Assembly: GCA_045636465.1 (NCBI GenBank) | Contig: JAZTXP010000044.1 | Coordinates: forward strand, 628 to 64,627 | Length of the DNA stretch: 64,000 nt | Origin: Eubacteriales bacterium | Lineage (GTDB): Bacteria; Bacillota; Clostridia; Oscillospirales; CAG-272 | Reading direction: 5' to 3' | In this document: positions 1-14,522 of the stretch, piece after piece | Numbering within the stretch: the first letter of the stretch is position 1 | Layout of the letters: each line of letters opens with the position of its first letter | Made by a program: the position numbers and the translations under genes | The notes under the pieces: generated by a model | Seen by the model: the letters and a program-made list of their open reading frames with translations, nothing else | The model's database searches: none | What the model was told of the DNA's origin: nothing

Positions 1-81
1 AAAAATACCCCCTCAAAACGCCATTCCCATGGCTTATAGGTGAAGGCGCACCCGTCTTACACTTTTTCAGGAGGTACGAAG

Positions 82-396
82 ATGTTACCACTTAACGCAA
101 TTCGAGAAGATTTGAAGGAGATCCGCTACTACTACGCACGCAAGGAGATTTTCGATGCGGCTATCGGCGGTATCGGGCTTAACAAGGTTTTGGATACGGT
201 GAAAAAATATAACACCGCTGTTCAGAACGCACCGCCGAGGCTCTATGACCTTTATATCTGCCTGTACGTGAAGAACTACACGCAGGAGGGCTTGTCAATC
301 GAGCTTGGATATACCCCCGAATATATCCAGATGCAACACAAAAAGCTCCTGCTTTTCCTTCAATCTTACTTTAAGAGCGAGGACGAAAGAAAATGA
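82..396 (+). CDS. Small sigma-70 region-4-like HTH regulator (ArpU/RinA/DUF1492-like mobile-element transcription factor)
   Basis: AGGAGG lies 7 nt upstream of the ATG at 82, which I prefer over the GTG at 40. The C-terminal segment YTQEGLSIELGYTPEYIQMQHKKLL resembles the region-4 HTH of small phage/ICE sigma-like factors. Confidence 0.5.
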   Translation: MLPLNAIREDLKEIRYYYARKEIFDAAIGGIGLNKVLDTVKKYNTAVQNAPPRLYDLYICLYVKNYTQEGLSIELGYTPEYIQMQHKKLLLFLQSYFKSEDERK

Positions 397-638
397 AGCA
401 GACGCCGGATTTTATGCTAAACGCTACGAACGTTTACCGTACTCCCCACTTTATCGTCAGGCAAAGGCTATCTATCCTTTGCAGCGAGGAAGAAAACAAT
501 GCAGTTATAAGCCGAGATACATTCTATAAAAGAACACCGGCACGTAACGCAGAGTACGAGGAAATTTTCAAAAAGCGTGAGCAGATAGACGGAAAAAGGC
601 TTCCCTCGTCGGGCTACATTCGAGAGTACCGAGAGTAA
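393..638 (+). CDS. Hypothetical small protein, translationally coupled to the upstream regulator
   Basis: ATGA start/stop overlap with the previous ORF. No recognisable motif. Confidence 0.35.
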   Translation: MKQTPDFMLNATNVYRTPHFIVRQRLSILCSEEENNAVISRDTFYKRTPARNAEYEEIFKKREQIDGKRLPSSGYIREYRE

Positions 639-664
639 AAAGACGGGTGCGGCTTCAAAAAACA

Positions 665-697
665 CTTTGGTTTCATTTGGGGTAAAGTTTGGGTAAA
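665..697 (-). repeat. Left iteron array: three tandem 11-bp units (ctttggtttca, tttggggtaaa, gtttgggtaaa), inverted relative to the array at 10700-10732
   Basis: Read directly from the sequence. The reverse complement of 676-697 (tttacccaaactttaccccaaa) matches 10700-10721 with one mismatch. The period is 11 bp. Confidence 0.75.
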
Positions 698-818
698 CAG
701 ATAGATTCTGCAAGTTTAGTTTTGATTACGTTGGGATAGAGTTTCTGGTTTTTGCCCGACAAATACCCTACAATGAAAGCGTAACCGACAGCTACCGATT
801 TACGATTATGGCGCTTGG

Positions 819-844
819 AGCTTGCAAGCTAAGGTGGCCACCTT
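819..844. promoter_or_regulatory. Two adjacent perfect palindromes: agcttgcaagct (819-830) and aaggtggccacctt (831-844). Candidate operator or ssDNA hairpin element.
   Basis: Both palindromes were checked base by base. They lie in the 300-nt non-coding leader upstream of the first gene of the module. Confidence 0.5.
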
Positions 845-952
845 CCATAGCACAATCGCCGGGAACAGAGTTTCAAGGAGCGTTCAGGTTACGAAAACAA
901 CTGAATAGCCTACGGGCAAACAAAATCTACAAATCACAGGAGGATTTTTTAA

Positions 953-1236
953 TGGCTAAAAAGGCAGCCACCGCCGAGGGCGGAAACAAGTACAATCAGC
1001 GCAGATGGGCGATCCCCTCTAAGCGTGCAAAGAACTATGCTGCTGAGCGTAAAGCAAAGGTGCATCAGCGAGGTCCCAAAGAAGGTCGTGAATTAACTGA
1101 TTACGAGGCAGGTATCCGTTCCGGCTACTTGCAGGCACAGACCGACCACGCCGGACTGTATAAGTACAAAAAGGCAATTTCCGAGGGTAAATCCAAGGCA
1201 GAGGCACGTGAAATTTCACAAAGAAAATCAAAATAA
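953..1236 (+). CDS. Small lysine/arginine-rich protein (94 aa), possibly nucleic-acid binding
   Basis: AGGAGG lies 8 nt upstream of the ATG at 953. The longer ORF from 808 has no RBS and crosses the palindromes. The composition is very basic. Confidence 0.55.
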
Positions 1237-1259
1237 TCTAATAGGAGGTATCAAATTTA

Positions 1260-1628
1260 ATGTCTAAAGAAAAGAAGATTTTTGTAGAAAGAGAAACCTA
1301 CACAAAGAACGAAAAGGAGTATTTCACCTATTTTATCAAAGGTAACATCCGTGGCAGAGACGTAAGGATCGCAATTATGCCCCCTGCAGACGGAGCAAAG
1401 GCTGACTTCAACGGCTATATGGTTCTTGATATCGTATTCGGTAATCAGATGAAGGCTGACTTCGTTCTTGAGCCCTTCGAGTTCAAGGATGCCAGCGGCA
1501 GAACTGTATCCGGCAATAAGACGCTCGTCCGTACTGTAGATGAAAACGGCGAAGTTTACGAGTGCGAAATTAAGCCTGCTCGTAAGTCTGACAAAACACT
1601 ACTCAATATGCTTTTGGCACAAGCGTAA
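1260..1628 (+). CDS. Hypothetical soluble 122-aa protein (speculative candidate for an ssDNA-binding or structural role)
   Basis: AGGAGG RBS, no TM segment, and a strong hairpin follows it. The function was not recognised. Confidence 0.55.
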   Translation: MSKEKKIFVERETYTKNEKEYFTYFIKGNIRGRDVRIAIMPPADGAKADFNGYMVLDIVFGNQMKADFVLEPFEFKDASGRTVSGNKTLVRTVDENGEVYECEIKPARKSDKTLLNMLLAQA

Positions 1629-1644
1629 AGCATAATCACACAAC

Positions 1645-1680
1645 ACTTCGGCTTATGAATAGCATTTTATAAGCCGAAGT
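1645..1680. other. Perfect 12-bp stem (acttcggcttat / ataagccgaagt) with a 12-nt loop and no U-tract
   Basis: Read directly. An A-run rather than a T-run follows it on the plus strand, so it is not a canonical intrinsic terminator. Confidence 0.6.
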
Positions 1681-1724
1681 TAAAAAAACAACAATTTTAC
1701 AAACAAGGAGGATTTTTTAATCAA

Positions 1725-3134
1725 ATGAGCAAAGGAAGTATTATAGCAATTATTGCATCGGTACTTTTGGTTATTCTTCTCGTAGGCGGTCTTGCCACTT
1801 GGTTCGGTAACGGTGAAAATCCCTTCGAGGATATCTTCACTCCCGATGATCCCGTGGACGAGCCCATCGTATTCCCCGAGACAGAGTATAATCCCACGTT
1901 CGGTACTAACTTTAAGGAAGATTTTCCTATCGCTAATCTCACACTTAGAGATAATATGCAGGTAGCACCTTACGCATATGTGGATACCACTCTCTTCGCA
2001 GGTAAGAAGATTACCAAGATTGATGCACCCGTAGGTACAGTAAAGGCTGTTGACGAGAATCAGTATTTTACCCTCTGGGTAGTAAAGTCCGAAGCGGTTA
2101 AGGTAGGCGGTGATGTAACAGATTATGCGTACCGTCAGTATAAGATCTATCTTCCCAAGGAAGAGCTTACAGGCACTACCGTTAATAAGTGGATCACTAT
2201 TGACGTTTCCCACCTTAATATCTATGTAGACGAGGATGAAACTCTTGCATTTATGAAGTCTGACGACCCCGTTATCTGTTGCTATGCACAGGGTAAGCTT
2301 AACGATTTCGTTTATGACCTTGCCAATACCGGTAAGATTCAGGCATCTCAGAGCATCTACTACGGTATCTATACCGATGATTACGTAGATCTTGAGGGCA
2401 AGAAGCTCTCCATTCTCGGAGATAGCATTTCTACCTATTCAGGTGTAAGCAATAATGCTACAAGCACAAACAACACTATCGGCTCCAATGCCGTGTATTA
2501 CCCCAAAGCAGATATTAATGCTGCTGATGAAACATGGTGGAAGCAGACCGCAGATTATACGAATATGGACGTACTCGTAAACAACTCTTGGTCCGGTTCC
2601 CGTGTTCTTAATAACAACGGCGCTGCATATATCGACAGATGTGTTCAGCTCCACGATAACACCGGTGAAAATTCCGGTACAAATCCCGATGTAATTGCAG
2701 TTTACATTGGTATTAATGATTTCAACGCAGGTCTTAACTGTGGAGAGTTTAACGAGCTTGCAGACGTATATACCGAAGAAAACGGATATATCACACCTAC
2801 AAGCTTTGCAGAGGCTTATGCAATTATGATCCATAAGATGACCGAGAGATATGCAGATTCCAAGATCTTCATTTTCACTCTCCCTGCAAACGGTACGAAT
2901 AAGTACACAGCTCTTCTCGACGAGTATAATACAGAAATCAGAAAGATAGCAGAATACTTCGATTGTTATCTCGTAGATATCGCTGCTATCGAAGGCTATG
3001 AGTATGCTAAGTACACTAATGACGGTCTCCACCCCAATGAAGCAGGTATGGACCTCATTACAGATCACTTTGCAAGAATGCTCAAGGCTGTTTACGCAAA
3101 AGAGGCAGATAATGCCGACAACACAAACAAATAA
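1725..3134 (+). CDS. Membrane-anchored SGNH/GDSL-family hydrolase (esterase/deacetylase type)
   Basis: N-terminal TM segment IIAIIASVLLVILLVGGLATWF. SGNH blocks in order: LGDSIS (I), NNSWSGS (II), IGINDF (III), DGLHPN (V). Confidence 0.75.
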   Translation: MSKGSIIAIIASVLLVILLVGGLATWFGNGENPFEDIFTPDDPVDEPIVFPETEYNPTFGTNFKEDFPIANLTLRDNMQVAPYAYVDTTLFAGKKITKIDAPVGTVKAVDENQYFTLWVVKSEAVKVGGDVTDYAYRQYKIYLPKEELTGTTVNKWITIDVSHLNIYVDEDETLAFMKSDDPVICCYAQGKLNDFVYDLANTGKIQASQSIYYGIYTDDYVDLEGKKLSILGDSISTYSGVSNNATSTNNTIGSNAVYYPKADINAADETWWKQTADYTNMDVLVNNSWSGSRVLNNNGAAYIDRCVQLHDNTGENSGTNPDVIAVYIGINDFNAGLNCGEFNELADVYTEENGYITPTSFAEAYAIMIHKMTERYADSKIFIFTLPANGTNKYTALLDEYNTEIRKIAEYFDCYLVDIAAIEGYEYAKYTNDGLHPNEAGMDLITDHFARMLKAVYAKEADNADNTNK

Positions 3135-3158
3135 TTTTTATAAAGGAGGTACTCATGT

Positions 3159-3401
3159 ATGAGTAAAATCAGCTTAAAAAAGAATTCAGGTCCGAGACAG
3201 ATGTCTCGTAGAAAGTCCGATCTCATGGATGCTTATGATATCGGCTTTGCAAAGGGTTGGGACGATGCGTATCTCATCCCCAAGCGTATGGGTGCTCGCT
3301 CTAAGGCGGCAGAAGGCTACAAGAAGGGTATCAAGTCCCGTAGAATTGTAGACAAGTACATGGCTCAGTACAATCAGGGCAAATCCAAAATCAAGATGTA
3401 A
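3159..3401 (+). CDS. Small basic protein (80 aa) sharing a D-x-Y-x-x-G-x-x-x-G-[YW]-like motif with the 953-1236 product
   Basis: AGGAGG lies 9 nt upstream. Rich in K and R. Motif similarity: LMDAYDIGFAKGW versus LTDYEAGIRSGY. Confidence 0.55.
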   Translation: MSKISLKKNSGPRQMSRRKSDLMDAYDIGFAKGWDDAYLIPKRMGARSKAAEGYKKGIKSRRIVDKYMAQYNQGKSKIKM

Positions 3402-3423
3402 TTAAAAGGAGGTATCAAAACTA

Positions 3424-4482
3424 ATGATTAAACTTAACGAAAACCAGAGATTTATAGCACTTGCCGTAGCTGTGGTACTCCTCTTTGCAGGAGTATTCGC
3501 TTCGGTGGCTATGGATATCGCACAGACACAGGCTATCAATAACCTTGAAAAGGCACATTATGACCTTGACGACGTAACCGGTATGCTTAAGGCGGAGGAT
3601 TTCGAAACAGAAGTTCAGGCAGAGGCTATGTCCCGTGTAAAGATCAAGGCATCCACTCCTCGCCTTATGTCTAACCCCGATGCAGGTGTAGCAACCGTAG
3701 CTGAAACCTACGTAGCTCAGGAGCTTACTGCTACCATTTTCCCCAATACTGCAAGTAACATTCTTGTGGATTGGTCTGTAGCTTGGGAATCTACTTCTCA
3801 GACTGCGGATATCAATCAGTATATCACTCTCAATCCCACCTATGCAGGCTCTCGTGTATGCGAGGTAAGATGTCATAAGGCTCTTCCCGGCAACGCAGTA
3901 ATTACCGTAACCACAAGAGATGGCGGTCATACCGCTAAGTGTACTGTTAAGTTCGTAGGTATTCCTACCACTATGACAGTAACTAACTCTACTCTTGACA
4001 AAGATACCAGCGGTAATTACAAGGTTCCTATGTTCAAGCGTCAGACCTACAACTTCGATATTAACCTCGGTAATATCTTTAATTCTGTAGGTACAACTTA
4101 CAAGAACTATTCCGTAGTTTCCGTAACACCTTTCGGTAACATTATGGCAGGTTCTCAGTGTGATTACGGTGACGGTACAATAGATTGGTCCAGCGTAGTT
4201 AAGACCCCTCTTACTACCTATAAGAGCGACTTTACTGCAACTATTACCGGTTCTACTCTTAAGGTAAATATCCCTAACGTTAGCGGTCTTTACACTAACT
4301 ACAGCGAAACCTCTTCCGAGACAATGTATGACGATTACTTCTACAGTGCTATCGAGGGTGAGACCTGCGGCGTAACTGTTGTTGTAAAGAACACTTCCGG
4401 CCTTACTGCTACTGTAAAGATCGTCTTTGACTCTGATGCGGTTGTAAGTGTAAGCCTTGACGAGTCCAGCCTTACTTTCTAA
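3424..4482 (+). CDS. Membrane-anchored protein with a bacterial Ig-like (Big_2-type) domain
   Basis: N-terminal TM segment FIALAVAVVLLFAGVFASVAM. The segment LTATIFPNTASNILVDWSVAW...AVITVTTRDGGHTAKCTVKF follows the Big_2 pattern. Confidence 0.6.
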   Translation: MIKLNENQRFIALAVAVVLLFAGVFASVAMDIAQTQAINNLEKAHYDLDDVTGMLKAEDFETEVQAEAMSRVKIKASTPRLMSNPDAGVATVAETYVAQELTATIFPNTASNILVDWSVAWESTSQTADINQYITLNPTYAGSRVCEVRCHKALPGNAVITVTTRDGGHTAKCTVKFVGIPTTMTVTNSTLDKDTSGNYKVPMFKRQTYNFDINLGNIFNSVGTTYKNYSVVSVTPFGNIMAGSQCDYGDGTIDWSSVVKTPLTTYKSDFTATITGSTLKVNIPNVSGLYTNYSETSSETMYDDYFYSAIEGETCGVTVVVKNTSGLTATVKIVFDSDAVVSVSLDESSLTF

Positions 4483-4501
4483 TTAAGGAGGGGAGCAAGA
4501 A

Positions 4502-5071
4502 ATGAGTAGTAACGCAAAAACAATTATTGTCGCTATCATTTCTTTGCTTCTGCTCGTAGGCGCACTTGGACTCATAATTCACTTCACCGGGGGTGGTACC
4601 CACGACTTTGCCACGTTCTACCTTACTTATGGTGATCAGACAATAATGGATACCACTTCCGGCTTTGTTCTTAATCAGTACGAGGGCAATAGGTTTGACG
4701 TACACTATACCTTCGACGAGAGCAAGAAGAACGCTTACGACGTAGAAATTAAAGGAAATGATAAATACTCCTTTACCTATACCGTAGATGGTGAGGAATA
4801 CGAGTTTAACGGCGACACAGACTACACAGGATTCTTTGACGTAGTAGAATACGAAGACTATTTCACAGTAAATGGCTTGTATTCAATCAAGACTATACTT
4901 GTTGAAAGACATAATGGAGCTGAGGTAGAAATACCCGAGAGTGTCCCGGAGCACGCAGAGTTCTTCATTATGACGGTTAAATCAACAACTCAGGATTCCA
5001 AGATCACAATCTATCTGAAGACTGCTCCGATCCTTGACGAGATAGTTCTTCCCGAAGAGATCCTGTTCTAA
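4502..5071 (+). CDS. Single-pass membrane protein, unknown function
   Basis: GGAGG RBS. N-terminal TM segment TIIVAIISLLLLVGALGLIIHF. Confidence 0.55.
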   Translation: MSSNAKTIIVAIISLLLLVGALGLIIHFTGGGTHDFATFYLTYGDQTIMDTTSGFVLNQYEGNRFDVHYTFDESKKNAYDVEIKGNDKYSFTYTVDGEEYEFNGDTDYTGFFDVVEYEDYFTVNGLYSIKTILVERHNGAEVEIPESVPEHAEFFIMTVKSTTQDSKITIYLKTAPILDEIVLPEEILF

Positions 5072-5084
5072 GGGGGAGATGCAT

Positions 5085-7088
5085 ATGAGAACAGTAATAA
5101 CAAAAGCTTTATCGCTTCTCTCAATCGTATGCATCTTATTCTCTCTATTCACGTTAGGCGTTAGTGCCGAAACGGTAAAAAAAGAGGTCGTTACGGACTT
5201 TAGCAAAACTAACGTTCTTGACGACCTCGAGTCCTCAACTGTTAACGGTCAGTTATTTGATATAACAGATTATCCGTATTCAGAGCAGTTGGATATTAAG
5301 CTCATAACTATGGTTGAATATTGCTACTCCTTTGAGTCGGATAATCTCGACCATTACGGTCTATATCTTTACATCTACAATCCAAGAAACCTTACTATTG
5401 ATACAAGCAGCGGTGCTAATAAAATACAAATGGCAACTGCTTACGATAGCAAGGGTGTACCTACAAGGTATGATAAGTTCAATCTTCAATTCTGTAACAC
5501 CGTTGAGTCCGGCAACTACAAAAACCTTTTCTATAAGTTCAAAATAGTTGAAAAGGAGATCAACGGCACTACCTTTTACGATAGAGTTAATTCTAACGGC
5601 AGAAGGTACGATATCACAGGTATTGAGCTTAAGACTAAAGGTGCTACGAACGCTACCGAGTATTTTGTAGGCGGTACGTATATCTTCTCGGGATATGCTA
5701 AAGGCTTCGGTCCTGACAAAGAGGCAGAGTCCAATCTTACTTGTGTGGTAGAGGAGCTTGAAACCTTAAAGCTTTCGGTTCATCATACCAACTACAGAAC
5801 GGGCGTATCCGACAAAGGCGAGGACTACTACAACGAGGTAAACACCGTATATTTCTCAGTACCCGAAAGAGTATTCGAGCAATACGGCAACTTGCAGAAG
5901 ATCCGCGCCGAATGGTGGGAGTACAAGACTAAGATGGCTACTGTCACTTCAAACCAAGACTTCTATAATCAGCTTTTACAGTATGTAGGAACTGACGTAG
6001 GACAGTATAGTTCAAGCGTACCCGTCAAAATCTATTCGGGTTATGACGGAAGAGCATCCACAGGACCGGGCATTCCAACGTATCACGATTATCATTGGGT
6101 GTATAACGTAAATCTTGACACACAATATACATCCTTCGGTTCTATCTTTTCTGTTAGTAGTACAGATAAGCAATCAACAATTATGCCTTATGCTTTCTAT
6201 GCACCTGTTACAGACGTGGGTGGAGTCTTTGACTTTCTATCCTCAGATCCGGTTGCAGGTAGTGTATCAAGCAGCGTAGTTAGAGATTGGATATATAACT
6301 ATTCAAATAGTTTAGGACACGGCTACGTTGATTGCAACGGCAGACAGTTAAGCAAGGACTTGTTCGAGGATAGTGTTGACTCCGGTAGAACTATGGGCTA
6401 CAACGATAAGACCATAGACATGGGGGACACCTTCGATTTACTTAGCTATGACAGTAATCACTCTTGGTGGGAAAAACTATGGGACTATGGATTTTCGTGG
6501 CCCACAACAGACGAACAACACAAGGGAGTAATGCCTATCCATATTCTTGAAGCAGGAGACCTTATTGGCACTAATGCTACCATTTCGCAAAGGCTATTGG
6601 TTAAAGAGGACGACGTGGCGGCATTGAAGGAGTTTTACAAAACCGAAACAGCCAACGGTAATAGGGTTGTAATATTCCGTTTTGCAAGCACCGAGTATTA
6701 TTGCGCCCCGGCATTCACTTCGGCAGGCAGTAATATGGTAAGCTGCGATACATACGTAGCACAGCAGACGGTATTCTTCGACTTTGACATCATAGAGCTT
6801 ACCTTCAACAATGACGGTGCATACAGAGTTATTCCCGTTGTTTCAAGCCCTATAGATATAGTCAATGAATTCCAGCCACCGCCCGAGGAAGAACTTTTCG
6901 GCAACACCTCAGCCTTTTGGATGATAATTATAGCCATCATTATGCTTGTAATTATTATCATCATAGGACAGCCGGCACTTAACCTTCTTGTAGAACTTCT
7001 TATATGGATAGTGATGCTACCCATAAGGCTTATACAAGCCATAATTGACCTAATAACAGGAGGTGGGGATATCCCACCTGACGTATAG
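5085..7088 (+). CDS. Large secreted protein with a C-terminal membrane anchor (candidate adsorption / receptor-binding protein)
   Basis: Signal-peptide-like N-terminus ending GVSA/ET. The C-terminal 60 aa are strongly hydrophobic (FWMIIIAIIMLVIIIIIG...LLIWIVMLPI). I prefer the second ATG (5085) because of its spacing to GGGGGAG. Confidence 0.6.
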   Translation: MRTVITKALSLLSIVCILFSLFTLGVSAETVKKEVVTDFSKTNVLDDLESSTVNGQLFDITDYPYSEQLDIKLITMVEYCYSFESDNLDHYGLYLYIYNPRNLTIDTSSGANKIQMATAYDSKGVPTRYDKFNLQFCNTVESGNYKNLFYKFKIVEKEINGTTFYDRVNSNGRRYDITGIELKTKGATNATEYFVGGTYIFSGYAKGFGPDKEAESNLTCVVEELETLKLSVHHTNYRTGVSDKGEDYYNEVNTVYFSVPERVFEQYGNLQKIRAEWWEYKTKMATVTSNQDFYNQLLQYVGTDVGQYSSSVPVKIYSGYDGRASTGPGIPTYHDYHWVYNVNLDTQYTSFGSIFSVSSTDKQSTIMPYAFYAPVTDVGGVFDFLSSDPVAGSVSSSVVRDWIYNYSNSLGHGYVDCNGRQLSKDLFEDSVDSGRTMGYNDKTIDMGDTFDLLSYDSNHSWWEKLWDYGFSWPTTDEQHKGVMPIHILEAGDLIGTNATISQRLLVKEDDVAALKEFYKTETANGNRVVIFRFASTEYYCAPAFTSAGSNMVSCDTYVAQQTVFFDFDIIELTFNNDGAYRVIPVVSSPIDIVNEFQPPPEEELFGNTSAFWMIIIAIIMLVIIIIIGQPALNLLVELLIWIVMLPIRLIQAIIDLITGGGDIPPDV

Positions 7089-7098
7089 AGGAGGAAAA

Positions 7099-7194
7099 AT
7101 GAAAACGATTAAGAGAATTATTGCAGTATTTCTCCTATTCGTGCTTCTCTGGGTGGTCGGTTATCTGATCTTTACAGGTAACCGATTACCTTAA
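7099..7194 (+). CDS. 31-aa single-TM peptide (MKTIKRIIAVFLLFVLLWVVGYLIFTGNRLP), candidate minor or major coat-like peptide
   Basis: Not in the ORF track because it is under 60 aa. GAGGAGG lies 5 nt upstream. It fills the gap between two genes exactly. Confidence 0.45.
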   Translation: MKTIKRIIAVFLLFVLLWVVGYLIFTGNRLP

Positions 7195-7213
7195 AGCAGA
7201 GAGGAGGAATGTT

Positions 7214-9346
7214 ATGAAAGCAAAAATAGACGTTAAAAAGATGATTTGTATTATTGCTTCGGTGATTTTTACAATTTTCTTCATATACCTTGCCATATCC
7301 CACTTCAGTAATTCTTATCTAAGACTTGGAGAGACATTCGGTGACCTTTGGAACTCAATGAAATACTATTTCTTTGAGATATTCGAGATGGATCACGATA
7401 CGGTCGCCACAGTCAAAGATTATTCAGAGATTATGAAGTGGGATGTTTCTATTCCCGAGACTCCCGAAGATGCAAAGGTTGATATAGATAACTATATGAA
7501 TCTGCTTGTAGATAAAGAAAACCTTAACTATTACAACTACACCGTAGGAGTAAAGATAGGAGATTTTGCGAGGCTATTACTAATTTTGCTCCCGTTTGGA
7601 GTATTACTTGTAATTTTGATTAAGATGCTTTATCTGAGACCTAACCACAAGCATGGCAAGGAAACAATGCCGCTTATAGTGTTTAAGACTATAACAAAAT
7701 ATACATATCACCCGGTAAAACGAGTGATTTTAGGGTATTGGAGCTTCTTACAGGAAAACAGAAACATACTAAACCTATGGCTTATAATTTGGCTTATGAA
7801 CCTGAACCTTATGAGCATTATTGTAGCCTTCGTTGCTTACTATCTCTACTTCTCGGTAAGCTGCGATATTTTAGGCTTATACGGTCAGTTGGTAAAGCTA
7901 ATACTCGACCTTGAGGTAGCAGTTAAAACGGTGCCACTCTACATATTTCTTCCGTTCCTTTGGGTAATGTTTGAGAATTTCAGACGGACAATAGCCGCCG
8001 GTATTCTTAATCACTTTGAAATGAAGAATAGAGGCTTTATTAACTCACTCCCCATTGTGTCTATGACCTGCGGCAGTATGGGTAAGAAGAAAACAACGCT
8101 TATTACAGATATGGCTCTATCCCAAGAGGTAATGTTCAGACAAAAAGCGTACGAGCTACTAAAGGTAAACGATATGCGCTTTCCCAACTTCCCTTGGATA
8201 TGCTTTGAGTTAGACCTTCGTACTGCTATGGATTACGGACAAGTCTATAATTTAGCCACCGTAAGAGAATGGGTTGAGAAGAAGCGAGCAAGATACGAAA
8301 AGCATGGTGATCCAAAGAAAAGACTCTACGGATATGACGTTCAGAGGTACGGTGAATGGTATGACGATAACCTCAAAATATGGCATATTTATGACGTGCT
8401 ATATAACTATGCACAGTTATACTTTATCTACGTTATAGAATCCTCGCTTATTGTTTCAAACTATTCCATAAGGACGGATAACGAGCTAATTGATGCAGGT
8501 AATTTTCCCAAATGGGCTTGCGATTTCTTCCCGGAGTTCACCAACGATGAAGGACGCTATTCCCATATCCTTGACTTTGACGTTCTCAGGCTCGGCAAGA
8601 AGGTTATTGAGAACAACCCCAACGCAGGCAGCTTTGAGTTCGGTGTAGTAGTAATATCCGAGGTAGGTAAAGAGCGAGGTAATAACCTTGAGAATAGAGA
8701 GATTAAACGGAATACCGATCAGACAAATCAGAAAAACGACCTTTTCAACTCTTGGCTTAAGATGTGTAGGCATTCTGCGACCGTAGATAACTATCCCTTC
8801 ATTAAGGTATTTACTGACGAGCAAAGACCTGAAAGCTGGGGTGCAGATGCAAGAGATCTCTGCGACATCCTCTACATAGAATCTAACGGCAAACAGAAGC
8901 TTGCCATGCCTTTCTATACCATAGAGGAAATGCTTGTGGAATGGGCTTTCAAGGGCTTTATTAACCTTTATTATATGATGCGTTATCTTCGTGGAGATAC
9001 TACGCTTTTCATATACGTATTAAAGCTCATAACCTCTTGGCTCTACCAAAGGAACGCAGGACTTTACAACCGCTTTGGATACTGTCTTACACATATAGCA
9101 AAAGAGCGAGGAACGATGGATGGCGAGGCTGAAAAGAAGAAATATTACGTAATTAACAAGAAGATATACAGTAGAAGATTTACAACAGACTGCTTTAGCG
9201 ATTACTTTAATGAACTTGCGAGAAAATCTCATATAGGACTTAACGATTATATTGAATACGAAACCGAACGAGCGAGTGTAGAGGAACTTAAAATGCAGAA
9301 CAGCTATTTTATTAACGCACTATATTCAAACGCAGGCTCTAACTGA
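7214..9346 (+). CDS. Polytopic membrane protein with a C-terminal deviant P-loop NTPase-like domain (candidate assembly/extrusion ATPase, Zot/pI-like in function)
   Basis: About five hydrophobic helices lie in residues 1-255. They are followed by GSMGKKKTT (nt 8072-8098), a Walker-B-like VVVISE, and MCRHS...VFTDEQ, which resembles the HRH...TQ segment of Zot-family ATPases. Confidence 0.45.
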   Translation: MKAKIDVKKMICIIASVIFTIFFIYLAISHFSNSYLRLGETFGDLWNSMKYYFFEIFEMDHDTVATVKDYSEIMKWDVSIPETPEDAKVDIDNYMNLLVDKENLNYYNYTVGVKIGDFARLLLILLPFGVLLVILIKMLYLRPNHKHGKETMPLIVFKTITKYTYHPVKRVILGYWSFLQENRNILNLWLIIWLMNLNLMSIIVAFVAYYLYFSVSCDILGLYGQLVKLILDLEVAVKTVPLYIFLPFLWVMFENFRRTIAAGILNHFEMKNRGFINSLPIVSMTCGSMGKKKTTLITDMALSQEVMFRQKAYELLKVNDMRFPNFPWICFELDLRTAMDYGQVYNLATVREWVEKKRARYEKHGDPKKRLYGYDVQRYGEWYDDNLKIWHIYDVLYNYAQLYFIYVIESSLIVSNYSIRTDNELIDAGNFPKWACDFFPEFTNDEGRYSHILDFDVLRLGKKVIENNPNAGSFEFGVVVISEVGKERGNNLENREIKRNTDQTNQKNDLFNSWLKMCRHSATVDNYPFIKVFTDEQRPESWGADARDLCDILYIESNGKQKLAMPFYTIEEMLVEWAFKGFINLYYMMRYLRGDTTLFIYVLKLITSWLYQRNAGLYNRFGYCLTHIAKERGTMDGEAEKKKYYVINKKIYSRRFTTDCFSDYFNELARKSHIGLNDYIEYETERASVEELKMQNSYFINALYSNAGSN

Positions 9347-9390
9347 CGGCGTTACGGTTAAATCCAAAGGTCTGCGTAAAAAGGAGGTAT

Positions 9391-10464
9391 ATGGCTTATG
9401 CCGAAGCGAAGGTCTATTTTGATGGGAGTCACTATATAGCGATACCCCACACAACAAGACCATCAAAAGCAAGATGCTCACCATTGGAAGAAAGAGTTGA
9501 GGTTAAAGCCGACACTCTTAAAGACAAATTTATTGAAAATGCGACAGAAAGCACGGCCCCTTTACCGGGGTACGTGCCTTTTGAGCTGGAAGAAATTGAA
9601 GTTGATGATATTGAAGATGTTTTTGGAGCATTTGAAAATAATGAAACTGATGAATCTGATAATAACGCCCCCGAATCCCCTTCACCAAGATTTGCTACTA
9701 AAAAAGAAATTTTTGAAGAGCATTACAAAGAGTGTTGTCATATGCGAAGGCACGAACGCAAAAAGGCTTTGATAGAAAGGATGCGTCCGTATTTTGATAC
9801 GGAGGAAAAAACACGACTTTACGTTACTGTCAACATTGAGCGAAAACTGCGTAATCTTATTTGCAGAAGAATAAGGCTTTCAAGGAAGGCAAATCTACAA
9901 GAGTTCAATTATTTCTGCACGTTTACTTACAATGATAAACTCCACGACGAAGAAAGCTTTAAGAGAAAGCTAAGACATACCATCTCGAATTTCAGCAAAA
10001 GAAAAGCGTGGAAATACATAGGTGTATGGGAACGCTCTCCCGAAAAGAAACGCCTTCATTTTCACGGTCTATTTTATATTCCTGATGGCACGATGCCGGG
10101 CATTTTAATTCAAAAAGAAGATTATAATTTTAATACCAGAAGGCGACAGATAACCAATCAAAACACCTATTTTAACGAAAAGTTTGGTAGGTCAGACTTT
10201 GAGAGTATTGACGAACCGAGTCGAAAAGGTACAGCATTAGCGTATATAATCAAGTATATTGAAAAAACAGGAGAGAAAATCGTTTACTCTAAAGGACTGC
10301 CTCAATTTTTCATCTCAGATATTCTCGAAAGTGATGTTGTAACTACCATAGGATCAGAAGATACAAAGCTGTTATTATTTGATGATTTCAGCTGCATTGA
10401 CGAGGGGTGCTATATAGGTGTCGTAAGCTCTGACGTGATAGAGCAACTTCGTAAAGCCAACTAA
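9391..10464 (+). CDS. Rolling-circle replication initiator (HUH endonuclease, two-tyrosine phiX174-A-like type)
   Basis: Motifs in canonical order: FCTFTY (I), RLHFHGLFYI (HUH, II), AYIIKYIEK (III, Y285 and Y289 at nt 10243 and 10255). Compare the phiX174 A protein motif YVAKYVNK. Confidence 0.75.
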   Translation: MAYAEAKVYFDGSHYIAIPHTTRPSKARCSPLEERVEVKADTLKDKFIENATESTAPLPGYVPFELEEIEVDDIEDVFGAFENNETDESDNNAPESPSPRFATKKEIFEEHYKECCHMRRHERKKALIERMRPYFDTEEKTRLYVTVNIERKLRNLICRRIRLSRKANLQEFNYFCTFTYNDKLHDEESFKRKLRHTISNFSKRKAWKYIGVWERSPEKKRLHFHGLFYIPDGTMPGILIQKEDYNFNTRRRQITNQNTYFNEKFGRSDFESIDEPSRKGTALAYIIKYIEKTGEKIVYSKGLPQFFISDILESDVVTTIGSEDTKLLLFDDFSCIDEGCYIGVVSSDVIEQLRKAN

Positions 10465-10532
10465 AAATCAAAAATTACATAAGGGCTCAAACAAAGGTTT
10501 TAACAACGCAACTTTTAACCGACAGAAGAAAC

Positions 10533-10572
10533 AACGGGCGAGTCGGCAAGCGGTTTAGCGCCGCCGCCCGTT
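10533..10572 (+). terminator. GC-rich hairpin (aacgggcg / cgcccgtt, 24-nt loop) followed by a T-rich tract. Possible rep terminator or ori-associated structure.
   Basis: Read directly. It lies 70 nt downstream of the rep stop codon. Confidence 0.35.
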
Positions 10573-10618
10573 CTTTGTCGGTATTGCGTTTCCTTTGTTC
10601 CGTTTGTTTTTGTTTTTT

Positions 10619-10681
10619 GGGCGTGTGCTTGGCTCGGCGGAGCGCAGCGACTCCGACTTGTATCAAGACAAGCACACGCCC
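10619..10681. promoter_or_regulatory. Candidate plus-strand origin: 13-bp perfect GC-rich stem (gggcgtgtgcttg / caagcacacgccc) with a 37-nt loop containing ACTTG/TATCAAG
   Basis: The stem was verified base by base. It is markedly GC-rich in an AT-rich locus. It lies directly between rep and the iterons, the usual RCR ori layout. Confidence 0.5.
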
Positions 10682-10699
10682 TGTAGTCACACACCTAAC

Positions 10700-10732
10700 T
10701 TTACCCAAACTTTTCCCCAACTTTACCCAAAC
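10700..10732 (+). repeat. Right iteron array: tttacccaaac, ttttccccaac, tttacccaaac (3 x 11 bp)
   Basis: Read directly. It sits 19 nt downstream of the GC-rich hairpin and is an inverted copy of 665-697. Confidence 0.75.
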
Positions 10733-10783
10733 TGTAACTGACATAAAAAAAGGGAGAGCTTTTTACACTCTCCCTATCAAGTA

Positions 10784-11098
10784 TTACGTTGTAAATAGAC
10801 CATAGATTTTATCGTATAGCGTAATCGCTTTACAAGGTCGCTCTTGATATGTCATTTCCTGTATTTCGGGTTTACCTTTATCAATTGCACGAAGCATTAT
10901 TTTGTTCGATAACTCTTTAAGTGTCGGGAAGGTGCTTTCGATAATGTTCTCATTAGCACCGACTTCAAGTATCTTGAAGCCTTTTTGCACGAGGTATGAG
11001 CTGAACTGCCAAAGCTTCTCAAACATACCGTTTGAGTCAAGTATCACCGATATATCTTTTTCTGGGTGATACGCTGTAATTCTAAAGTAATTTGCCAT
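10784..11098 (-). CDS. Hypothetical protein (104 aa), last gene of the minus-strand accessory operon
   Basis: AGGAGG RBS 7 nt upstream. No motif recognised. Confidence 0.5.
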   Translation of the reverse strand: MANYFRITAYHPEKDISVILDSNGMFEKLWQFSSYLVQKGFKILEVGANENIIESTFPTLKELSNKIMLRAIDKGKPEIQEMTYQERPCKAITLYDKIYGLFTT

Positions 11099-11111: not shown

Positions 11112-12425
11112 TTATGCGGCTATTTTCTTTAACTGCCTTTTTGCGTATGGCAGCCATTTGGTGTTTATGTATGTAGTAATGTCATCTGCCGGCTTTGTAT
11201 TGCCGTTTGCATAACATTGTAGTATCTTCTTTGATCTCAACGAGTATTCCATAGTAACAAGTGGAACGTCTGGTGCGTCTGCACTACGAATAAAGAATAT
11301 AAGCGTTTCTTCACGAGCGAATTTTTGCTCATATCCCATTCTTCCGACACAGTGGTGTAATGCTTCACCTTCAGCCTTAAGCTCCGCCGGACTCTTTGCT
11401 ATGATAACAAGATAAGCAGTATTTTTGTCCTTTTGCATAGGCAGATACTTTTCTGCAACAGCATTAAACTTTTCGTAAAACTCAGCACGTTCCTTTTTAT
11501 CGTTTTCGATCCTTAATGCGTTGGCTTCATCAACACGAATGTCGTGCCAATGCATAAAATCATGTGGATAACGATTTTTAGGCTCGTCCATATTCAAGCC
11601 GAGATATATACAAGCCTTTGCGTAGTCAAGATATAATCTATGCGACAGTTTTTTACTGCGGATATATTCAAAGTATTTCTTGTAATCACCCTTAATGACG
11701 TCACGAATAGGCTTAAAATCTTTCTCTCGACAGAAGCATTTTTTCTCTTGCTCGAATTTTTGTGTTTCGTCAAGAGGTGTACCTCTGCGATAGGATGCGA
11801 GGATTGTGGAAACGTAATAGTAATTTCTTTTTAGTTCATCACGGTTACGGGCAATCCATTTTCTGAACTTCTTATCCTTGCCGAGCTTTTGGAGAAGTTG
11901 TATACTATCTGCATATCTTTCAAGACCGAGCTTAACAACATATTCAACCTGCGGATATTTATTATAGATGCGAAGATATTTGAGAATATCTAAGTATGGA
12001 TACTGCTCCCAAGCGGCATATTTGTATTCCGGTAATTTTGCAAGGTATTCTTTATTTACTAAGGGAGCCCATGGATCAAAGTATTTATCATAGTTCCACC
12101 CCCATTCTTTATCTTCATACCATCTCGGAGTTTTTGAAAGTCCTTCTTCATACCAACCTACAGAAAGCGTCCCCATAAAGTGTCGGCACAGGTCTTTTAC
12201 AAAGCATATATCCGAGTCAATGCCGTGTATAGCAACCTGTTTGTAATGCCAATCGTTTCTGTTGTTTCTGACAGCTACTGTAACTTTAACAAGCTCACCG
12301 TCATTTTTAGTAAGATATGAATAAAATCTTACTTGCTTTGTAGGTTTTTTTACTTGCTGATTATCCAGCTTTTTGATCTTTTCAACTATATATTTAGGAA
12401 CGGGCTTAATCTTTTCCATCTTCAT
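11112..12425 (-). CDS. PcfJ-like protein
   Basis: The C-terminal EGEALHHCVGRMGYEQKF...LIFFIRS...VTMEYSL...ILQCYANGN matches the PcfJ-domain signature. TAATG overlap with the upstream PcfK-like gene, as in pCF10-type pairs. Confidence 0.65.
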   Translation of the reverse strand: MKMEKIKPVPKYIVEKIKKLDNQQVKKPTKQVRFYSYLTKNDGELVKVTVAVRNNRNDWHYKQVAIHGIDSDICFVKDLCRHFMGTLSVGWYEEGLSKTPRWYEDKEWGWNYDKYFDPWAPLVNKEYLAKLPEYKYAAWEQYPYLDILKYLRIYNKYPQVEYVVKLGLERYADSIQLLQKLGKDKKFRKWIARNRDELKRNYYYVSTILASYRRGTPLDETQKFEQEKKCFCREKDFKPIRDVIKGDYKKYFEYIRSKKLSHRLYLDYAKACIYLGLNMDEPKNRYPHDFMHWHDIRVDEANALRIENDKKERAEFYEKFNAVAEKYLPMQKDKNTAYLVIIAKSPAELKAEGEALHHCVGRMGYEQKFAREETLIFFIRSADAPDVPLVTMEYSLRSKKILQCYANGNTKPADDITTYINTKWLPYAKRQLKKIAA

Positions 12426-13417
12426 TACAATCTCACCTCCAAGTCATTACCAAACAATCCTGATATAGCAGCGATAAGCTCTTTTTCTTCACGCTTACGC
12501 TTTTCGTCAATGCTTTCATTTTTGCTTTCTTCTTCGGGCATTTCAATTACTTCTCCCGTTTCTATATTTACAGTACCTTTAACCGCGGATTTTACAGTAA
12601 GGTCATCGTTTTCTGCTATAATCAAGGTCAAGCCCTTATCGGTCAACTTATCGTAATAAACGTCTGCTCTATGATAGGGGAATCCAACCATCGGGACTCT
12701 GTGTTTTAGTCCCATATCACGACTTGTAAGAGTAAGCTCTATAAGTTCGCTTACTTGTACTGCGCCATAACCGAACACTTCATAAAAATCTCCAATACGC
12801 ATACAAACCACGTAATCGGGATATTGATTCTGAATAGCCATATATTTTTGGAACAGCGGCGAGCCTTTTGGATCTTCTTCTACGACCACCTCTACCGGCT
12901 CTGCTATGGGTTCTTCAACTACCGTTTCAATAGTTTCTTCAACGACTTCTTTAACCGTTTCTTCCGTATCATTAACAACGGGAGTATCGTTTGAAAAATC
13001 AAAGAGCGATAACTGTTCCGACTCCGGCTTTTTAGCTACGGGCGGTGTATATGTAGTTGTAAGTGTTGTAGTTGTTTTCTTAACAACAGGCTTCGGTGCT
13101 TTATACTCGCTGCCGTCCTCGTTGTAGAGCATACCAATGATGCTTTCTTCCTCGAAATAGTGGATAGCCCAACCGAAAACAACGTCGCTTCTGACACAAG
13201 CCGCTGAAGCACCTTTTTCTGCTTGCTTTCTTGCTTCATCTGTTGCATATTTCATAAAGCCATCAAGCGTTTTTTTGTTGATAAGAGTTTTACCGTCTTT
13301 TTCAATATGGACACCGTTATTTATCTTTTCTGCAAGCGTTTCACTTGCATTTTCTTCAAGATATTTCTTAATAAGTTCTTGTTCTGTACCTTTTGCGGTG
13401 AGATTTAATGTAATCAT
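12425..13417 (-). CDS. Fusion protein: PcfK/AcrIIA9-like N-terminal domain, acidic T/V/E-rich linker with a QLSLF beta-clamp-binding motif, and MutS domain I (mismatch-binding domain)
   Basis: N-terminus: LIKKYLEENASE...ACVRSDVVFGWAIHYFEEESI (PcfK-like). QLSLF at nt 13001-13015. Residues 185-270 (SPLFQKYMAIQNQYPDYVVCMRIGDFYEVF...VPMVGFPYHRADVYYDKLTDKGLTLIIAE) align colinearly with E. coli MutS [30 protein letters not shown]...[29 protein letters not shown]. Confidence 0.75.
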   Translation of the reverse strand: MITLNLTAKGTEQELIKKYLEENASETLAEKINNGVHIEKDGKTLINKKTLDGFMKYATDEARKQAEKGASAACVRSDVVFGWAIHYFEEESIIGMLYNEDGSEYKAPKPVVKKTTTTLTTTYTPPVAKKPESEQLSLFDFSNDTPVVNDTEETVKEVVEETIETVVEEPIAEPVEVVVEEDPKGSPLFQKYMAIQNQYPDYVVCMRIGDFYEVFGYGAVQVSELIELTLTSRDMGLKHRVPMVGFPYHRADVYYDKLTDKGLTLIIAENDDLTVKSAVKGTVNIETGEVIEMPEEESKNESIDEKRKREEKELIAAISGLFGNDLEVRL

Positions 13418-13720
13418 TTATAAGTCCTCCTTTTTATTGTTTTTCGTAAAAGAACAAAAAGCCCCTTTCTGTTTCCAGAAGGGTACTTCATGCCAGATGC
13501 CATCTCTGAACTCTGACTTCTTTATTGGTATGATAACCCACTCGGGCTTTTTAAGCGGGCGATTAGATAAGGTTGCCAACGACGGAAAGCGTAAATACAT
13601 TTCTTTCATCTCCTTAGCTTCTCTATAAGTGCGAGTAATAAACCGTCTTATGTAGTTTTTACAGCCTTTTTCTTTATAGCAGACCTTATAGCCATACGGA
13701 TTATGTAAATTAGGCTTCAT
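13418..13720 (-). CDS. Small strongly basic hypothetical protein (100 aa)
   Basis: ATGA overlap with the upstream gene. Basic composition within an otherwise acidic operon. Confidence 0.45.
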   Translation of the reverse strand: MKPNLHNPYGYKVCYKEKGCKNYIRRFITRTYREAKEMKEMYLRFPSLATLSNRPLKKPEWVIIPIKKSEFRDGIWHEVPFWKQKGAFCSFTKNNKKEDL

Positions 13721-14253
13721 ACAACACCGTATAACCTTTCTGCCACTCTTGGCAAAGCCGAGTAGAAGTTAGTATTCATAATCGTGTTATGCAGCTCTCG
13801 ATCGTGAGCAAAGTAGTTTCTATCGGCAAACTCATAACCCTTTTTAGTAAGTTTTTTAAGCTCATAGCTGTCCGAACCGTCGTGATGATGTCCAGAAATG
13901 AAAAAATGACCGTTTTCATCATAGAACTTAACAAAGTCCAAATGACGAATACAGTCAAGCAGATCATCTATACTACGAATAAACTTACCACCACGAGAAG
14001 GACCGTCCCACCTACCACACGTTCCTGTAAGCAGGTAACAATCCTTTTCGAGTAAATACTCAAGATCGGCTCTGAAGTCATCCCAATCTCGGCGCTGCTG
14101 TTCTTCCATCTCGTGATAAACTACGCAGTCGGGAATCTCTTCTTCTGATATCCAGCCTTCTTCTTCGGCAAAAGTTTCAAACAGATAATTCTTAACCGAG
14201 TTAAAGCTTTGAACGTCGTTATCATCATAAAATACAGTGGTTTTAGTTTTCAT
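13717..14253 (-). CDS. Hypothetical acidic protein (178 aa)
   Basis: AAAGGAG RBS. No motif recognised. Confidence 0.5.
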   Translation of the reverse strand: MKTKTTVFYDDNDVQSFNSVKNYLFETFAEEEGWISEEEIPDCVVYHEMEEQQRRDWDDFRADLEYLLEKDCYLLTGTCGRWDGPSRGGKFIRSIDDLLDCIRHLDFVKFYDENGHFFISGHHHDGSDSYELKKLTKKGYEFADRNYFAHDRELHNTIMNTNFYSALPRVAERLYGVV

Positions 14254-14268
14254 TTTTATTCTCCTTTC

Positions 14269-14520: not shown

Positions 14521-14522
14521 TT

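Follow-up and report, generated by a model that had tools for sequence, protein, structure and literature searches.

Integrated rolling-circle elements of gut Clostridia with a membrane NTPase module that matches neither Zot nor VirB4/VirD4: a possible new route of DNA export

In a Eubacteriales bacterium (CAG-272; assembly GCA_045636465.1, contig JAZTXP010000044.1), we analysed a stretch of 64,000 nt (positions 628 to 64,627 of the forward strand), hereafter called the window, in whose own numbering all coordinates are given. Near its left edge lies a block of about 10 kb of plus-strand genes, which includes those for a 710-aa membrane NTPase and a rolling-circle replication protein (Rep) and which an earlier note on this DNA had proposed to be an integrated, virus-like element of single-stranded DNA (ssDNA). 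We found this block to be the central module of a larger temperate integrated element, measuring at least 17.2 kb here, with relatives in about 100 loci. Judged by its sequence, the element is of a known kind as an integrative rolling-circle element and appears new in its export module. It is not a member of the Inoviridae. We give a little less than an even chance to the view that the family represents a previously unrecognised class of temperate and non-lytic elements, abundant in Clostridia of the human gut and typified by the present one, in which an NTPase machine related neither to Zot/pI nor to VirB4/VirD4 exports rolling-circle DNA; it would be either a new virus family or a way of transferring DNA that is new for Gram-positive bacteria. 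The more specific reading that we prefer, a temperate and non-lytic element that exports its rolling-circle DNA as a phage-like particle via a new membrane apparatus, is put forward tentatively and with a somewhat lower confidence, a cell-free particle being favoured over cell-to-cell transfer only slightly.

The block was compared with its relatives in about 100 loci overall, some counts being drawn from 70 (origin), from 80 (Rep) or from the first 18 loci. It contains ten plus-strand open reading frames (ORFs) within 952-10464 (94, 122, 469, 80, 352, 189, 669, 31, 710 and 357 aa), and two more co-oriented ORFs lie upstream of 952, which brings the total to twelve. The genes are the following (TM, transmembrane).

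82-396, plus strand: 104-aa protein with a weak resemblance to sigma-70 region 4 (NCBIfam sigma70-ECF, E 0.016), probable regulator at the head of the module; orthologues at the same position in 31-35 loci
393-638, plus strand: conserved 81-aa protein with no family match; position kept in 17-45 loci
952-1236, plus strand: very basic 94-aa protein (24 lysines plus arginines), candidate DNA-binding protein; orthologues in 55 loci, median identity 78%
1260-1628, plus strand: soluble, highly conserved 122-aa protein, candidate ssDNA-binding protein or nucleoprotein; mean column identity in the alignment 66%
1725-3134, plus strand: membrane-anchored 469-aa SGNH/GDSL esterase (PF13472, GDSL_2, 2e-16) with an N-terminal TM segment
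3159-3401, plus strand: very basic 80-aa protein (21 lysines plus arginines); positional orthologues of 69-99 aa
3424-4482, plus strand: 352-aa protein with an N-terminal TM anchor (7-35) and a beta-rich ectodomain (hydropathy scan)
4502-5071, plus strand: 189-aa protein with an N-terminal TM anchor (1-33) and an acidic ectodomain; orthologues in 53-56 loci, about 31% identity
5079-7088, plus strand: secreted 669-aa multi-beta-sandwich protein with a C-terminal TM anchor (hydropathy, AF2 model), candidate adsorption or adhesion protein
7099-7194, plus strand: 31-aa TM peptide (43 aa from the GTG at 7063), encoded directly before the NTPase gene and conserved there, with orthologues in 16 of the first 18 loci
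7214-9346, plus strand: 710-aa protein in which a helical membrane domain (about 1-278) is followed by a C-terminal P-loop NTPase; its gene is the family's signature and the product a candidate DNA pump
9391-10464, plus strand: 357-aa HUH rolling-circle Rep with two tyrosines (YIIKYIEK); PF23343, 1.1e-10

Every listed gene lies on the plus strand, as had been noted before, and an exact AGGAGG is found 3-13 nt 5' of the start in 10 of the 12 ORFs, in line with the earlier observation that nearly all have a ribosome-binding site of this type. The intergenic gaps between 3135 and 9390, previously put at no more than about 45 nt, measure 7-44 nt. The number of twelve ORFs that the earlier note gave for 953-10464 holds only if 82-396 and 393-638 are added; ten lie within 952-10464. 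Likewise, the N-terminal anchors, the signal and the polytopic protein that it had described are confirmed by the hydropathy scan, but membrane or secreted products amount to six (469, 352, 189, 669, 31 and 710 aa) instead of seven, and the two small, very basic products (94 and 80 aa) are as described. Searches of Pfam, PHROGs and NCBIfam assign a family within 952-10464 only to the 469-aa protein (SGNH/GDSL_2) and the 357-aa Rep (PF23343), and among the proteins of the block they find no capsid, portal, terminase, type IV secretion system (T4SS) ATPase or relaxase, in agreement with what had been read from the translations. Neither a jelly-roll nor an HK97 capsid protein was found.

The 710-aa protein is the signature of the family. 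In its AF2 model, with a predicted local distance difference test score (pLDDT) of 89.4, the membrane helices lead straight into the P-loop domain; several TM segments fall within the first 260 residues by hydropathy scan, the Walker A motif GSMGKKKT occupies residues 287-294, and E483, K486, R488, N490, D535, Q537 and R538 are invariant. Clustering its homologues leaves more than 3,183 at 90% and 972 clusters at 50% identity; nearly all are 700-750 aa long, and none is named or has a Pfam domain. In 48 members of this NTPase family, Pfam found no Zot, FtsK_SpoIIIE, T4SS-DNA_transf, TraG-D_C, VirB4 family or DUF87 match, and comparison of the 710-aa protein with sequence profiles of the Protein Data Bank (PDB) returned nothing relevant. 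Foldseek of the model against the PDB gave nothing below E 0.001; the best, non-significant matches were the STIV2 B204 packaging NTPase and HerA (E about 1), and VirD4/TrwB and FtsK were not in the top 50, so that no match to the VirD4/TcpA fold, which the earlier note had named as evidence against a virus, was obtained. Against BFVD the model had a single significant match, the unnamed 269-aa protein A0A894JLK1 (E 4.9e-4, probability 1.0), the remaining matches, including A32-like packaging ATPases and RecA-like proteins, being non-significant at E 0.1-1 or above. We read the 710-aa protein as a divergent membrane-anchored NTPase of the ASCE (additional strand, catalytic glutamate) type, possibly near the FtsK-HerA group, which fits a predicted DNA pump.

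Filamentous phages were the comparison proposed by the earlier note, and the pI/Zot morphogenesis ATPase (PF05707) is the sole gene conserved in all inoviruses (PMC10061712). No Zot match was obtained for the window protein, nor for any of the 48 family members at E up to 1, and in an hhalign comparison with M13 pI only the 16-residue P-loop aligned, at a probability of 5%. The inoviruses of related hosts, those of Enterocloster, keep Zot, whereas the element family has no Zot/pI homology (0 of 48 members). A classical inovirus was rejected on this test, and the label of filamentous phage could not be retained; the statement that no protein resembles the classical Ff type was borne out, and no description of the membrane module was found in the material searched. 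The element resembles the filamentous phages (Tubulavirales: Inoviridae, Plectroviridae, Paulinoviridae) in a Rep from the Pfam family of plectrovirus ORF2 and inovirus G2P, in the membrane insertion of all non-cytoplasmic proteins, in a tiny TM peptide adjoining the membrane NTPase, in the absence of lysis genes and in a temperate lifestyle, and the topology of the 669-aa protein (signal plus C-terminal anchor) is shared with M13 pIII and SpV1 ORF1 (715 aa). It differs from them in an NTPase that is twice as long and, in the opposite arrangement to pI, follows a polytopic membrane domain, in its size of 17-35 kb, in its use of both strands for genes, in its anti-restriction arm and its slot for defence cargo, and in lacking a clear major coat protein. 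The TM peptide of 31-47 aa (7099-7194), the only coat candidate, has no similarity to M13 pVIII.

Among the other products of the module, the 122-aa protein has 411 homologues, all unnamed and from Clostridia, and no match in PDB, Pfam or PHROG. The 669-aa protein, which begins with a signal-like stretch and has its C-terminal TM segment at 605-647, has 927 homologues, none of them named; its AF2 model (pLDDT 76.7) strings beta-sandwich domains together ahead of a long C-terminal helix (611-659), Foldseek against the PDB returned only non-significant immunoglobulin (Ig), pilin and adhesin matches, and in 17 loci an alternative form of 475 aa takes its place. The slot of the 352-aa protein is variable and often duplicated (75 ORFs in 53 loci, about 30% identity), and as a group the ectodomain proteins are the most divergent, at 30-41% identity versus 54-57% for Rep and NTPase. 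The 31-aa peptide, which has a TM core, matches phrog_8056 at E 4.6e-4. The SGNH esterase, which also matches PHROG tail-fibre families (1.9e-10), is accessory and present only in the closest relatives (3-4 loci), and paralogy of the 94-aa and 80-aa basic proteins was not supported.

This set of proteins raises the alternative of a pleomorphic, vesicle-type virus like the Pleolipoviridae or Plasmaviridae, for which the 669-aa protein would be the spike, the TM proteins would sit in the envelope, the basic proteins would condense the genome and the NTPase would load it. The gene logic of HRPV-1 is parallel (rolling-circle Rep, spike with signal and C-terminal anchor, small TM ORFs, multi-TM ORF7, VP8 ATPase), there are two very basic soluble proteins, and lysis genes are absent. 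More generally, HRPV-1 and Acholeplasma phage L2 resemble the element as small temperate entities with an anchored spike, small membrane proteins, a P-loop ATPase and non-lytic release, to which HRPV-1 adds a rolling-circle Rep and L2 integration. However, no sequence homology is detectable: profiles of the 710-, 122- and 669-aa proteins gave nothing against the proteomes of SpV1, L2, HRPV-1 and M13, with hmmsearch and hhalign finding nothing beyond the P-loop in HRPV-1 and hmmsearch finding nothing in L2. Moreover, the 669-aa model has no significant match to solved structures, L2 has no rolling circle, and budding is hard to picture for the walled monoderms that carry the element, the hosts of the known families being archaea or wall-less bacteria. 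We consider a virus of this type very improbable.

The Rep matches PF23343 ('ORF2/G2P') at E 1.1e-10, with 42 bits versus a curated cut-off of 27.8, and the three motifs of an HUH Rep that had been noted before were found as FCTFTY, RLHFHGLF and YIIKYIEK, kept in 79-80 of 80 orthologues. The same pattern of HFH and YxxKY occurs in phiX174 gpA (LHFHAVH, YVAKYVNK), and tblastn outside the family gave only weak matches, to Reps of Microviridae, so by its sequence the Rep is of the ssDNA-phage type. Just downstream of its gene, where the earlier note had placed a hairpin and iterons, the following features were found, none of them assigned to a strand.

10529-10576: hairpin 1, a covarying stem with the loop AAGCGGTTTAGCG, candidate single-strand origin (ssoA-like)
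10619-10681: hairpin 2, with 16-nt arms around CTTGTATCAAG, candidate double-strand origin and nick site
10694-10733: iterons, three direct repeats spaced by 11 nt, candidate binding site of Rep

The stem of hairpin 1 shows compensatory double changes in 11 of 13 pairs, and its loop AAGCGGTTTAGCG recurs in 58 of 70 loci at some 70 nt past the Rep stop. This loop holds TAGCG, resembling the CS-6 element of the ssoA single-strand origin, which is TAGCGT (PMC4598088). Hairpin 2 is nearly invariant in the family, with its arm motif in 63 of 70 loci and compensatory changes in the most distant relative, and the reverse complement of the enclosed CTTGTATCAAG, which is CTTGATAC, resembles the phiX174 origin (ACTTG/ATAT). 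The iterons are common only to relatives with a close Rep (L016, 96% identity) and are different in others. Taken together, the two hairpins and the iterons form, as far as can be read from their sequences, a complete rolling-circle origin set; the exact 24-mer of the origin had no match in IMG/VR. Compared with phiX174 and the rolling-circle plasmids pC194 and pMV158, the element has in common the HUH Rep with HFH and YxxKY, the hairpin with CTTG/ATA, three iterons spaced by 11 nt and a separate CS-6-like hairpin; unlike in these plasmids, the replicon lies inside an integrative element of 17-35 kb and its Rep has no Rep_1, Rep_2 or Rep_trans match. The HUH motif with its catalytic tyrosines, the origin hairpin with a nick motif and the single-strand origin, by which phiX174/pC194-type replicons are defined, are thus all recognisable in the element, which on the same kind of evidence lacks what defines a filamentous phage (Zot) and an integrative and conjugative element, or ICE (VirB4/VirD4).

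The motif resembling a nick site (10655-10669) is a near-palindrome, reading ACTTGTATC on the plus strand and TCTTGATAC on the minus strand. The plus strand thus gives ACTTG-TATC and the minus strand TCTTG-ATAC, of which the minus reading is closer to the nick context of phiX174, and the minus half is better conserved in the family. Because the motif is near-palindromic and because the CS-6-like TAGCG stands on the plus strand and the phiX/pC194-like CTTG/ATAC on the minus strand, the nicked and displaced strand cannot be read from the sequence; it may be the module's antisense strand that is displaced. For this reason a polarity argument based on a 'leading region', in which the arm genes described below would be transcribable from the transferred strand (as in PMC11541004), was considered and not used.

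The earlier note had taken 665-10732 as the limits of the element and had reported no integrase. Both claims mislead: conserved synteny reaches the left edge of the window and, rightward, a tRNA-Ser gene, and since the window's left edge cuts the element, whose left end lies outside, the recombinase is not in the window. In relatives, a tyrosine or serine recombinase is encoded about 10 kb upstream of the NTPase gene. An independent 10-kb prophage from 665 to 10732 was rejected, as the synteny and similarity of relatives extend both ways and the right end is the tRNA. Also omitted before was a minus-strand arm of 6.5 kb (PcfJ, PcfK-MutS_I, ArdA), which is part of the element and leads to tRNA-Ser(GGA).

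10751-10775, minus strand: terminator-like hairpin closing the arm; relatives have their cargo inserted in the interval from the origin to this hairpin
10784-11098, minus strand: conserved 104-aa protein, last gene of the arm; orthologues in 26-39 loci
11112-12425, minus strand: PcfJ-like protein (PF14284, 1e-29; phrog_8470, 3.5e-40)
12425-13417, minus strand: PcfK-like domain fused to MutS domain I (PF01624, 9e-21; PF14058, 6e-8); 22 loci
13418-15605, minus strand: five arm genes (100, 178, 87, 208 and 145 aa) without assigned function
15592-16212, minus strand: ArdA anti-restriction protein (PF07275, 5e-13)
16246-16848, minus strand: two small genes (77 and 116 aa) with which the arm begins; orthologue of the 77-aa product in 12-19 loci
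17248-17339, minus strand: tRNA-Ser(GGA) (ARAGORN, Rfam), integration target and right boundary of the element

Similarity to the related locus L008 ends 26 nt inside tRNA-Ser, and the elements of relatives, in which both the plus-strand module and the minus-strand arm are kept, end at tRNA-Leu, Val, Ala, Ser or Arg. Beyond 17.5 kb (17513-64000) the window consists of housekeeping chromosome (aspartokinase, glutaminyl-tRNA synthetase, glycogen operon, MurJ-like flippase, RelA/SpoT, RecJ, IspH-S1), in which no prophage or T4SS genes were seen. One relative shows both limits. MT835493.1 (L007, L112), deposited as 'UNVERIFIED: Bacteriophage sp.', is a fragment of bacterial chromosome (NrdD, thioredoxin reductase, tRNA-Arg) with an integrated family member. 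Its element measures about 35 kb, is flanked by a 45-nt imperfect att repeat that corresponds to the 3' half of tRNA-Arg, and carries in order a tyrosine integrase, HTH_17, a LexA/UmuD-like S24 protein, a UmuC-like polymerase, the module with Rep, 14 kb of Dnd-like defence genes and the PcfJ/PcfK/ArdA arm. Further relatives have serine recombinases, regulators of the WYL or Cro type, and YolD. The proposal of an integrated mobile element of a Gram-positive host (Clostridia) is supported. In L104, ten co-oriented small genes without Pfam match (3406-8735) lie between a cI-like helix-turn-helix (HTH) gene with an integrase fragment and the sigma-like gene, and the region left of the window may similarly hold more conserved genes without assigned family. 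At the other end, 400 nt of non-coding DNA between arm and tRNA (16849-17247) contain two terminator-like hairpins and fold as ssDNA more stably than shuffled sequence (z = -3.9); this could be the site of the arm promoter, of att-site arms or of a single-strand promoter.

Within the arm, three proteins have PHROG matches, among them the 208-aa protein (phrog_3156, 1.7e-15), and PcfJ has homologues in 115 phage records and in 453 plasmid records. Since they are found in both, the arm does not decide between virion and conjugation, and it was rejected as proof of the latter. The fusion of a PcfK-like domain with MutS domain I, a mismatch-binding domain, is unusual, and 22 relatives have kept it; when the DNA enters a cell, the protein might bind mismatched or single-stranded stretches, or else serve the host's MutS as a decoy. 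A hotspot for cargo separates the origin (about 10690) from the first arm gene (10798); it is empty in the window and holds inserts of 3.3-14 kb in five relatives (L007, L011, L012, L015 and L016), the cargo consisting of type I restriction-modification, Dnd-like genes and STAND NTPase(-phosphoesterase) genes.

Across the loci the gene order is constant: S24 repressor, HTH/sigma-like gene, the 104-, 81-, 94- and 122-aa proteins, at times the 80-aa protein, one or two proteins of the 352-aa type, the 189-aa protein, the 669-aa protein or its 475-aa form, the TM peptide, the 710-aa NTPase, Rep, origin, cargo, and on the minus strand the 104-aa protein, PcfJ and PcfK-MutS_I. The series 94/122/352/189/669/31/710/Rep was found in 50-100 contigs, and a recurrence of the gene order in about 100 independent contigs is beyond chance. 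NTPase and Rep are linked in 92 of 101 loci, always adjacent and co-oriented. This tight linkage also bears on the alternative that the block is a membrane operon with no part in DNA transfer, such as a surface or secretion island, which merely rides along on a rolling-circle replicon that has integrated. Experiments have assigned no function to any component and the fold searches are uninformative, which would suit such an island; however, next to the linkage of NTPase and Rep, the block travels as a whole, together with integrases, into tRNA genes of different kinds, and cargo is inserted elsewhere, at its defined hotspot. We regard this as the least probable of the readings considered.

The family is large and is found in metagenomes of gut Clostridia. 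A metagenome scan yielded at least 375 relatives, the 80 loci that were kept are mostly from human-gut assemblies, and close relatives occur in metagenome-assembled genomes (MAGs) of Acutalibacteraceae, Eubacteriales and Lachnospiraceae; for distant NTPase representatives, only contigs of 3 kb were retrieved. None of 72,556 plasmids has the NTPase, nor, MT835493 excepted, has any of 50,697 phage records, and two independent motif scans of IMG/VR found it in 2 of 2.9 million contigs. No prior description of the family was found in literature searches. Across about 100 loci, no VirB4-like, coupling-protein-like, capsid-like or lysis gene cluster and no other large conserved protein cluster accompanies the family, no family locus has a peptidoglycan hydrolase, and T4SS genes, whose presence beside the homologues the earlier note had set against its view, were found next to none of the relatives. 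The first 1.6 kb of the window (1-1616) have 87% DNA identity to a lineage (L001, L002 and L008 compared) whose middle genes are about 41-64% identical (669-aa protein 41%, 710-aa protein 64%), and the 104-aa protein of 82-396 recurs as an identical copy in 51 collection blocks, beside the module of the other lineage, which implies recombination between lineages of the family. Two MAGs hold two or three related copies (L010 and L012 in one; L011, L014 and L016 in the other), which may reflect either several elements in one genome or mixed strains.

For the preferred reading of a non-lytic element that exports its DNA as a particle, these data can be assembled as follows. Its limits are set by the tRNA boundary, by the 35-kb relative with att repeat, integrase, same module and arm, and by the housekeeping genes beyond 17.5 kb; the Rep and the conserved, covarying hairpins, with iterons that track the Rep variant, point to a rolling-circle replicon; and the order conserved across 50-100 contigs marks one functional unit. 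A LexA-like S24 repressor, whose gene is seen in relatives and lies outside the window here, would keep the element silent, and a tyrosine or serine recombinase would excise it at a tRNA-derived att repeat such as that found in a relative. The two-tyrosine HUH Rep, as its motifs and the hairpin structure suggest, would then nick the origin just 3' of its own gene and start rolling-circle replication, with hairpin 1 priming the complementary strand. The displaced single strand would be handed to the 710-aa protein, whose cytoplasmic P-loop NTPase on a membrane domain would act as DNA pump, while the basic 94- and 80-aa proteins and the 122-aa protein would bind DNA. The DNA would leave the cell without lysis, capped and possibly coated by the membrane-inserted 31-, 189-, 352- and 669-aa proteins in the way in which filamentous phages assemble; alternatively, these anchored proteins would bridge to a recipient cell. 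In the new cell, the PcfJ/PcfK-MutS_I/ArdA arm would blunt restriction and the element would integrate.

Several traits give the element a virus-like appearance. To judge from sequence comparison, the only relatives of its Rep outside the family are ssDNA-phage Reps. Each conserved non-cytoplasmic protein is TM-anchored, the surface proteins being held in this way rather than by sortase, and the 669-aa protein has a pIII-like topology. The order of DNA-binder candidates, small proteins, large anchored protein, tiny TM peptide and membrane NTPase has its parallel in M13 gV to gI. Variation and mosaicism are greatest among the ectodomain proteins, tail-fibre families of phages are matched by the accessory SGNH esterase, and VirB4, coupling protein and wall hydrolase are absent family-wide, with an NTPase that is not on any of the 72,556 plasmids. 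Lysis genes are absent, and the size range of 17 to 35 kb rules out a capsid of fixed size.

The main competitor of a particle is a non-canonical form of conjugation, in which Rep would be the relaxase, the 710-aa protein a combined coupling protein and channel ATPase, and the anchored proteins would make the mating contact, so that ssDNA would be handed directly from one cell to another with neither a particle nor a VirB4-type T4SS involved. HUH Reps have previously been recruited as relaxases, namely in the MOB_T class. An integrase, a tRNA target, a LexA-like repressor, UmuC/YolD, defence cargo and a PcfJ/PcfK/ArdA arm are features that ICEs commonly have, the topology of the NTPase (membrane part N-terminal, motor C-terminal) and its weak FtsK-HerA-like fold matches suit a DNA translocase, NTPase, Rep, origin and ArdA are adjacent, there is no clear coat protein, and the family is nearly invisible in virus collections. 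With the Tn916-type and other ICEs of Firmicutes, and with integrative mobilizable elements (IMEs) carrying MOB_T, the element shares, to judge from its relatives, an integrase and regulators at one end, and further the adjoining genes for a membrane ATPase and an HUH nuclease next to an origin, together with a nearby ArdA, sigma-like regulators and cargo. However, VirB4, VirD4, TcpA/FtsK, VirB6, VirB8 and a wall hydrolase are found neither in the 48 NTPase homologues nor in their conserved neighbours, unlike in Tn916-type elements, and no CagE_TrbE_VirB, AAA_10 or DUF87 match that would indicate a VirB4-family ATPase was obtained in the module or in these homologues; a classical ICE was rejected, as the family is without VirB4 and VirD4. 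The module is also absent from plasmids, where modules for conjugation as a rule occur too, the arm is no hallmark of conjugation (PcfJ in 115 phage records; three PHROG matches), and the Rep, which belongs to PF23343 and not to Rep_trans, is of a family that is otherwise phage-borne. On balance, we hold conjugation of this kind to be unlikely, although it is a serious candidate.

A further possibility is a helper-dependent element, an IME or a satellite, with its own nicking and replication and a borrowed T4SS or capsid, the membrane proteins serving exclusion, adhesion or docking. IMEs often carry only a Rep-like relaxase and their own coupling ATPase, no recognisable complete transfer or capsid machinery was found in the element, and two or three copies may occur in one MAG. 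But the 8-9 conserved syntenic genes (about 9 kb, mostly for membrane proteins) are more than the usual load of a hitchhiker, there are no terS-like or capsid-remodelling genes, and the window shows no helper within 45 kb, so that this possibility appears improbable.

Against the export of a phage-like particle, which we nevertheless prefer, a number of points have to be weighed. Particles, excised circles or ssDNA of the element have not been observed, and no terminal overlap was seen in the fetched contigs, most loci being excerpts of longer contigs. Homology to Zot/pI is absent in the window protein, in the 48 members and in the profile comparison with M13 pI. There is no convincing major coat protein; the sole small TM peptide (31-47 aa) has its basic end at the N-terminus. 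The element is larger than known inoviruses. It is, moreover, nearly absent from virus collections (2 of 2.9 million contigs in IMG/VR, plus a single unverified phage record). Fold comparison of the NTPase gives as best matches, none of them significant, translocases of the FtsK-HerA type, which would suit packaging and conjugative pumping alike, and the adjacency of NTPase, Rep, origin and ArdA recalls the coupling protein, relaxase, oriT and ardA of Tn916-type elements.

Whichever form export takes, the NTPase family is of considerable scale, with 972 clusters at 50% and more than 3,000 at 90% identity and at least 375 relatives in a single metagenome scan, and its hosts (Acutalibacteraceae, Lachnospiraceae and other Eubacteriales) dominate the human colon. 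The family is missing from plasmid collections and all but missing from those of phages, which means that current pipelines label these regions of 17-35 kb as plain chromosome. With their cargo slot and anti-restriction arm, the elements are likely vehicles for the exchange of immunity and counter-immunity genes among gut commensals. If the proposed export is true, it would constitute a third route for ssDNA across the Gram-positive envelope, besides Zot-driven extrusion and type IV secretion, and it would provide several large protein families with a function that they have hitherto lacked.

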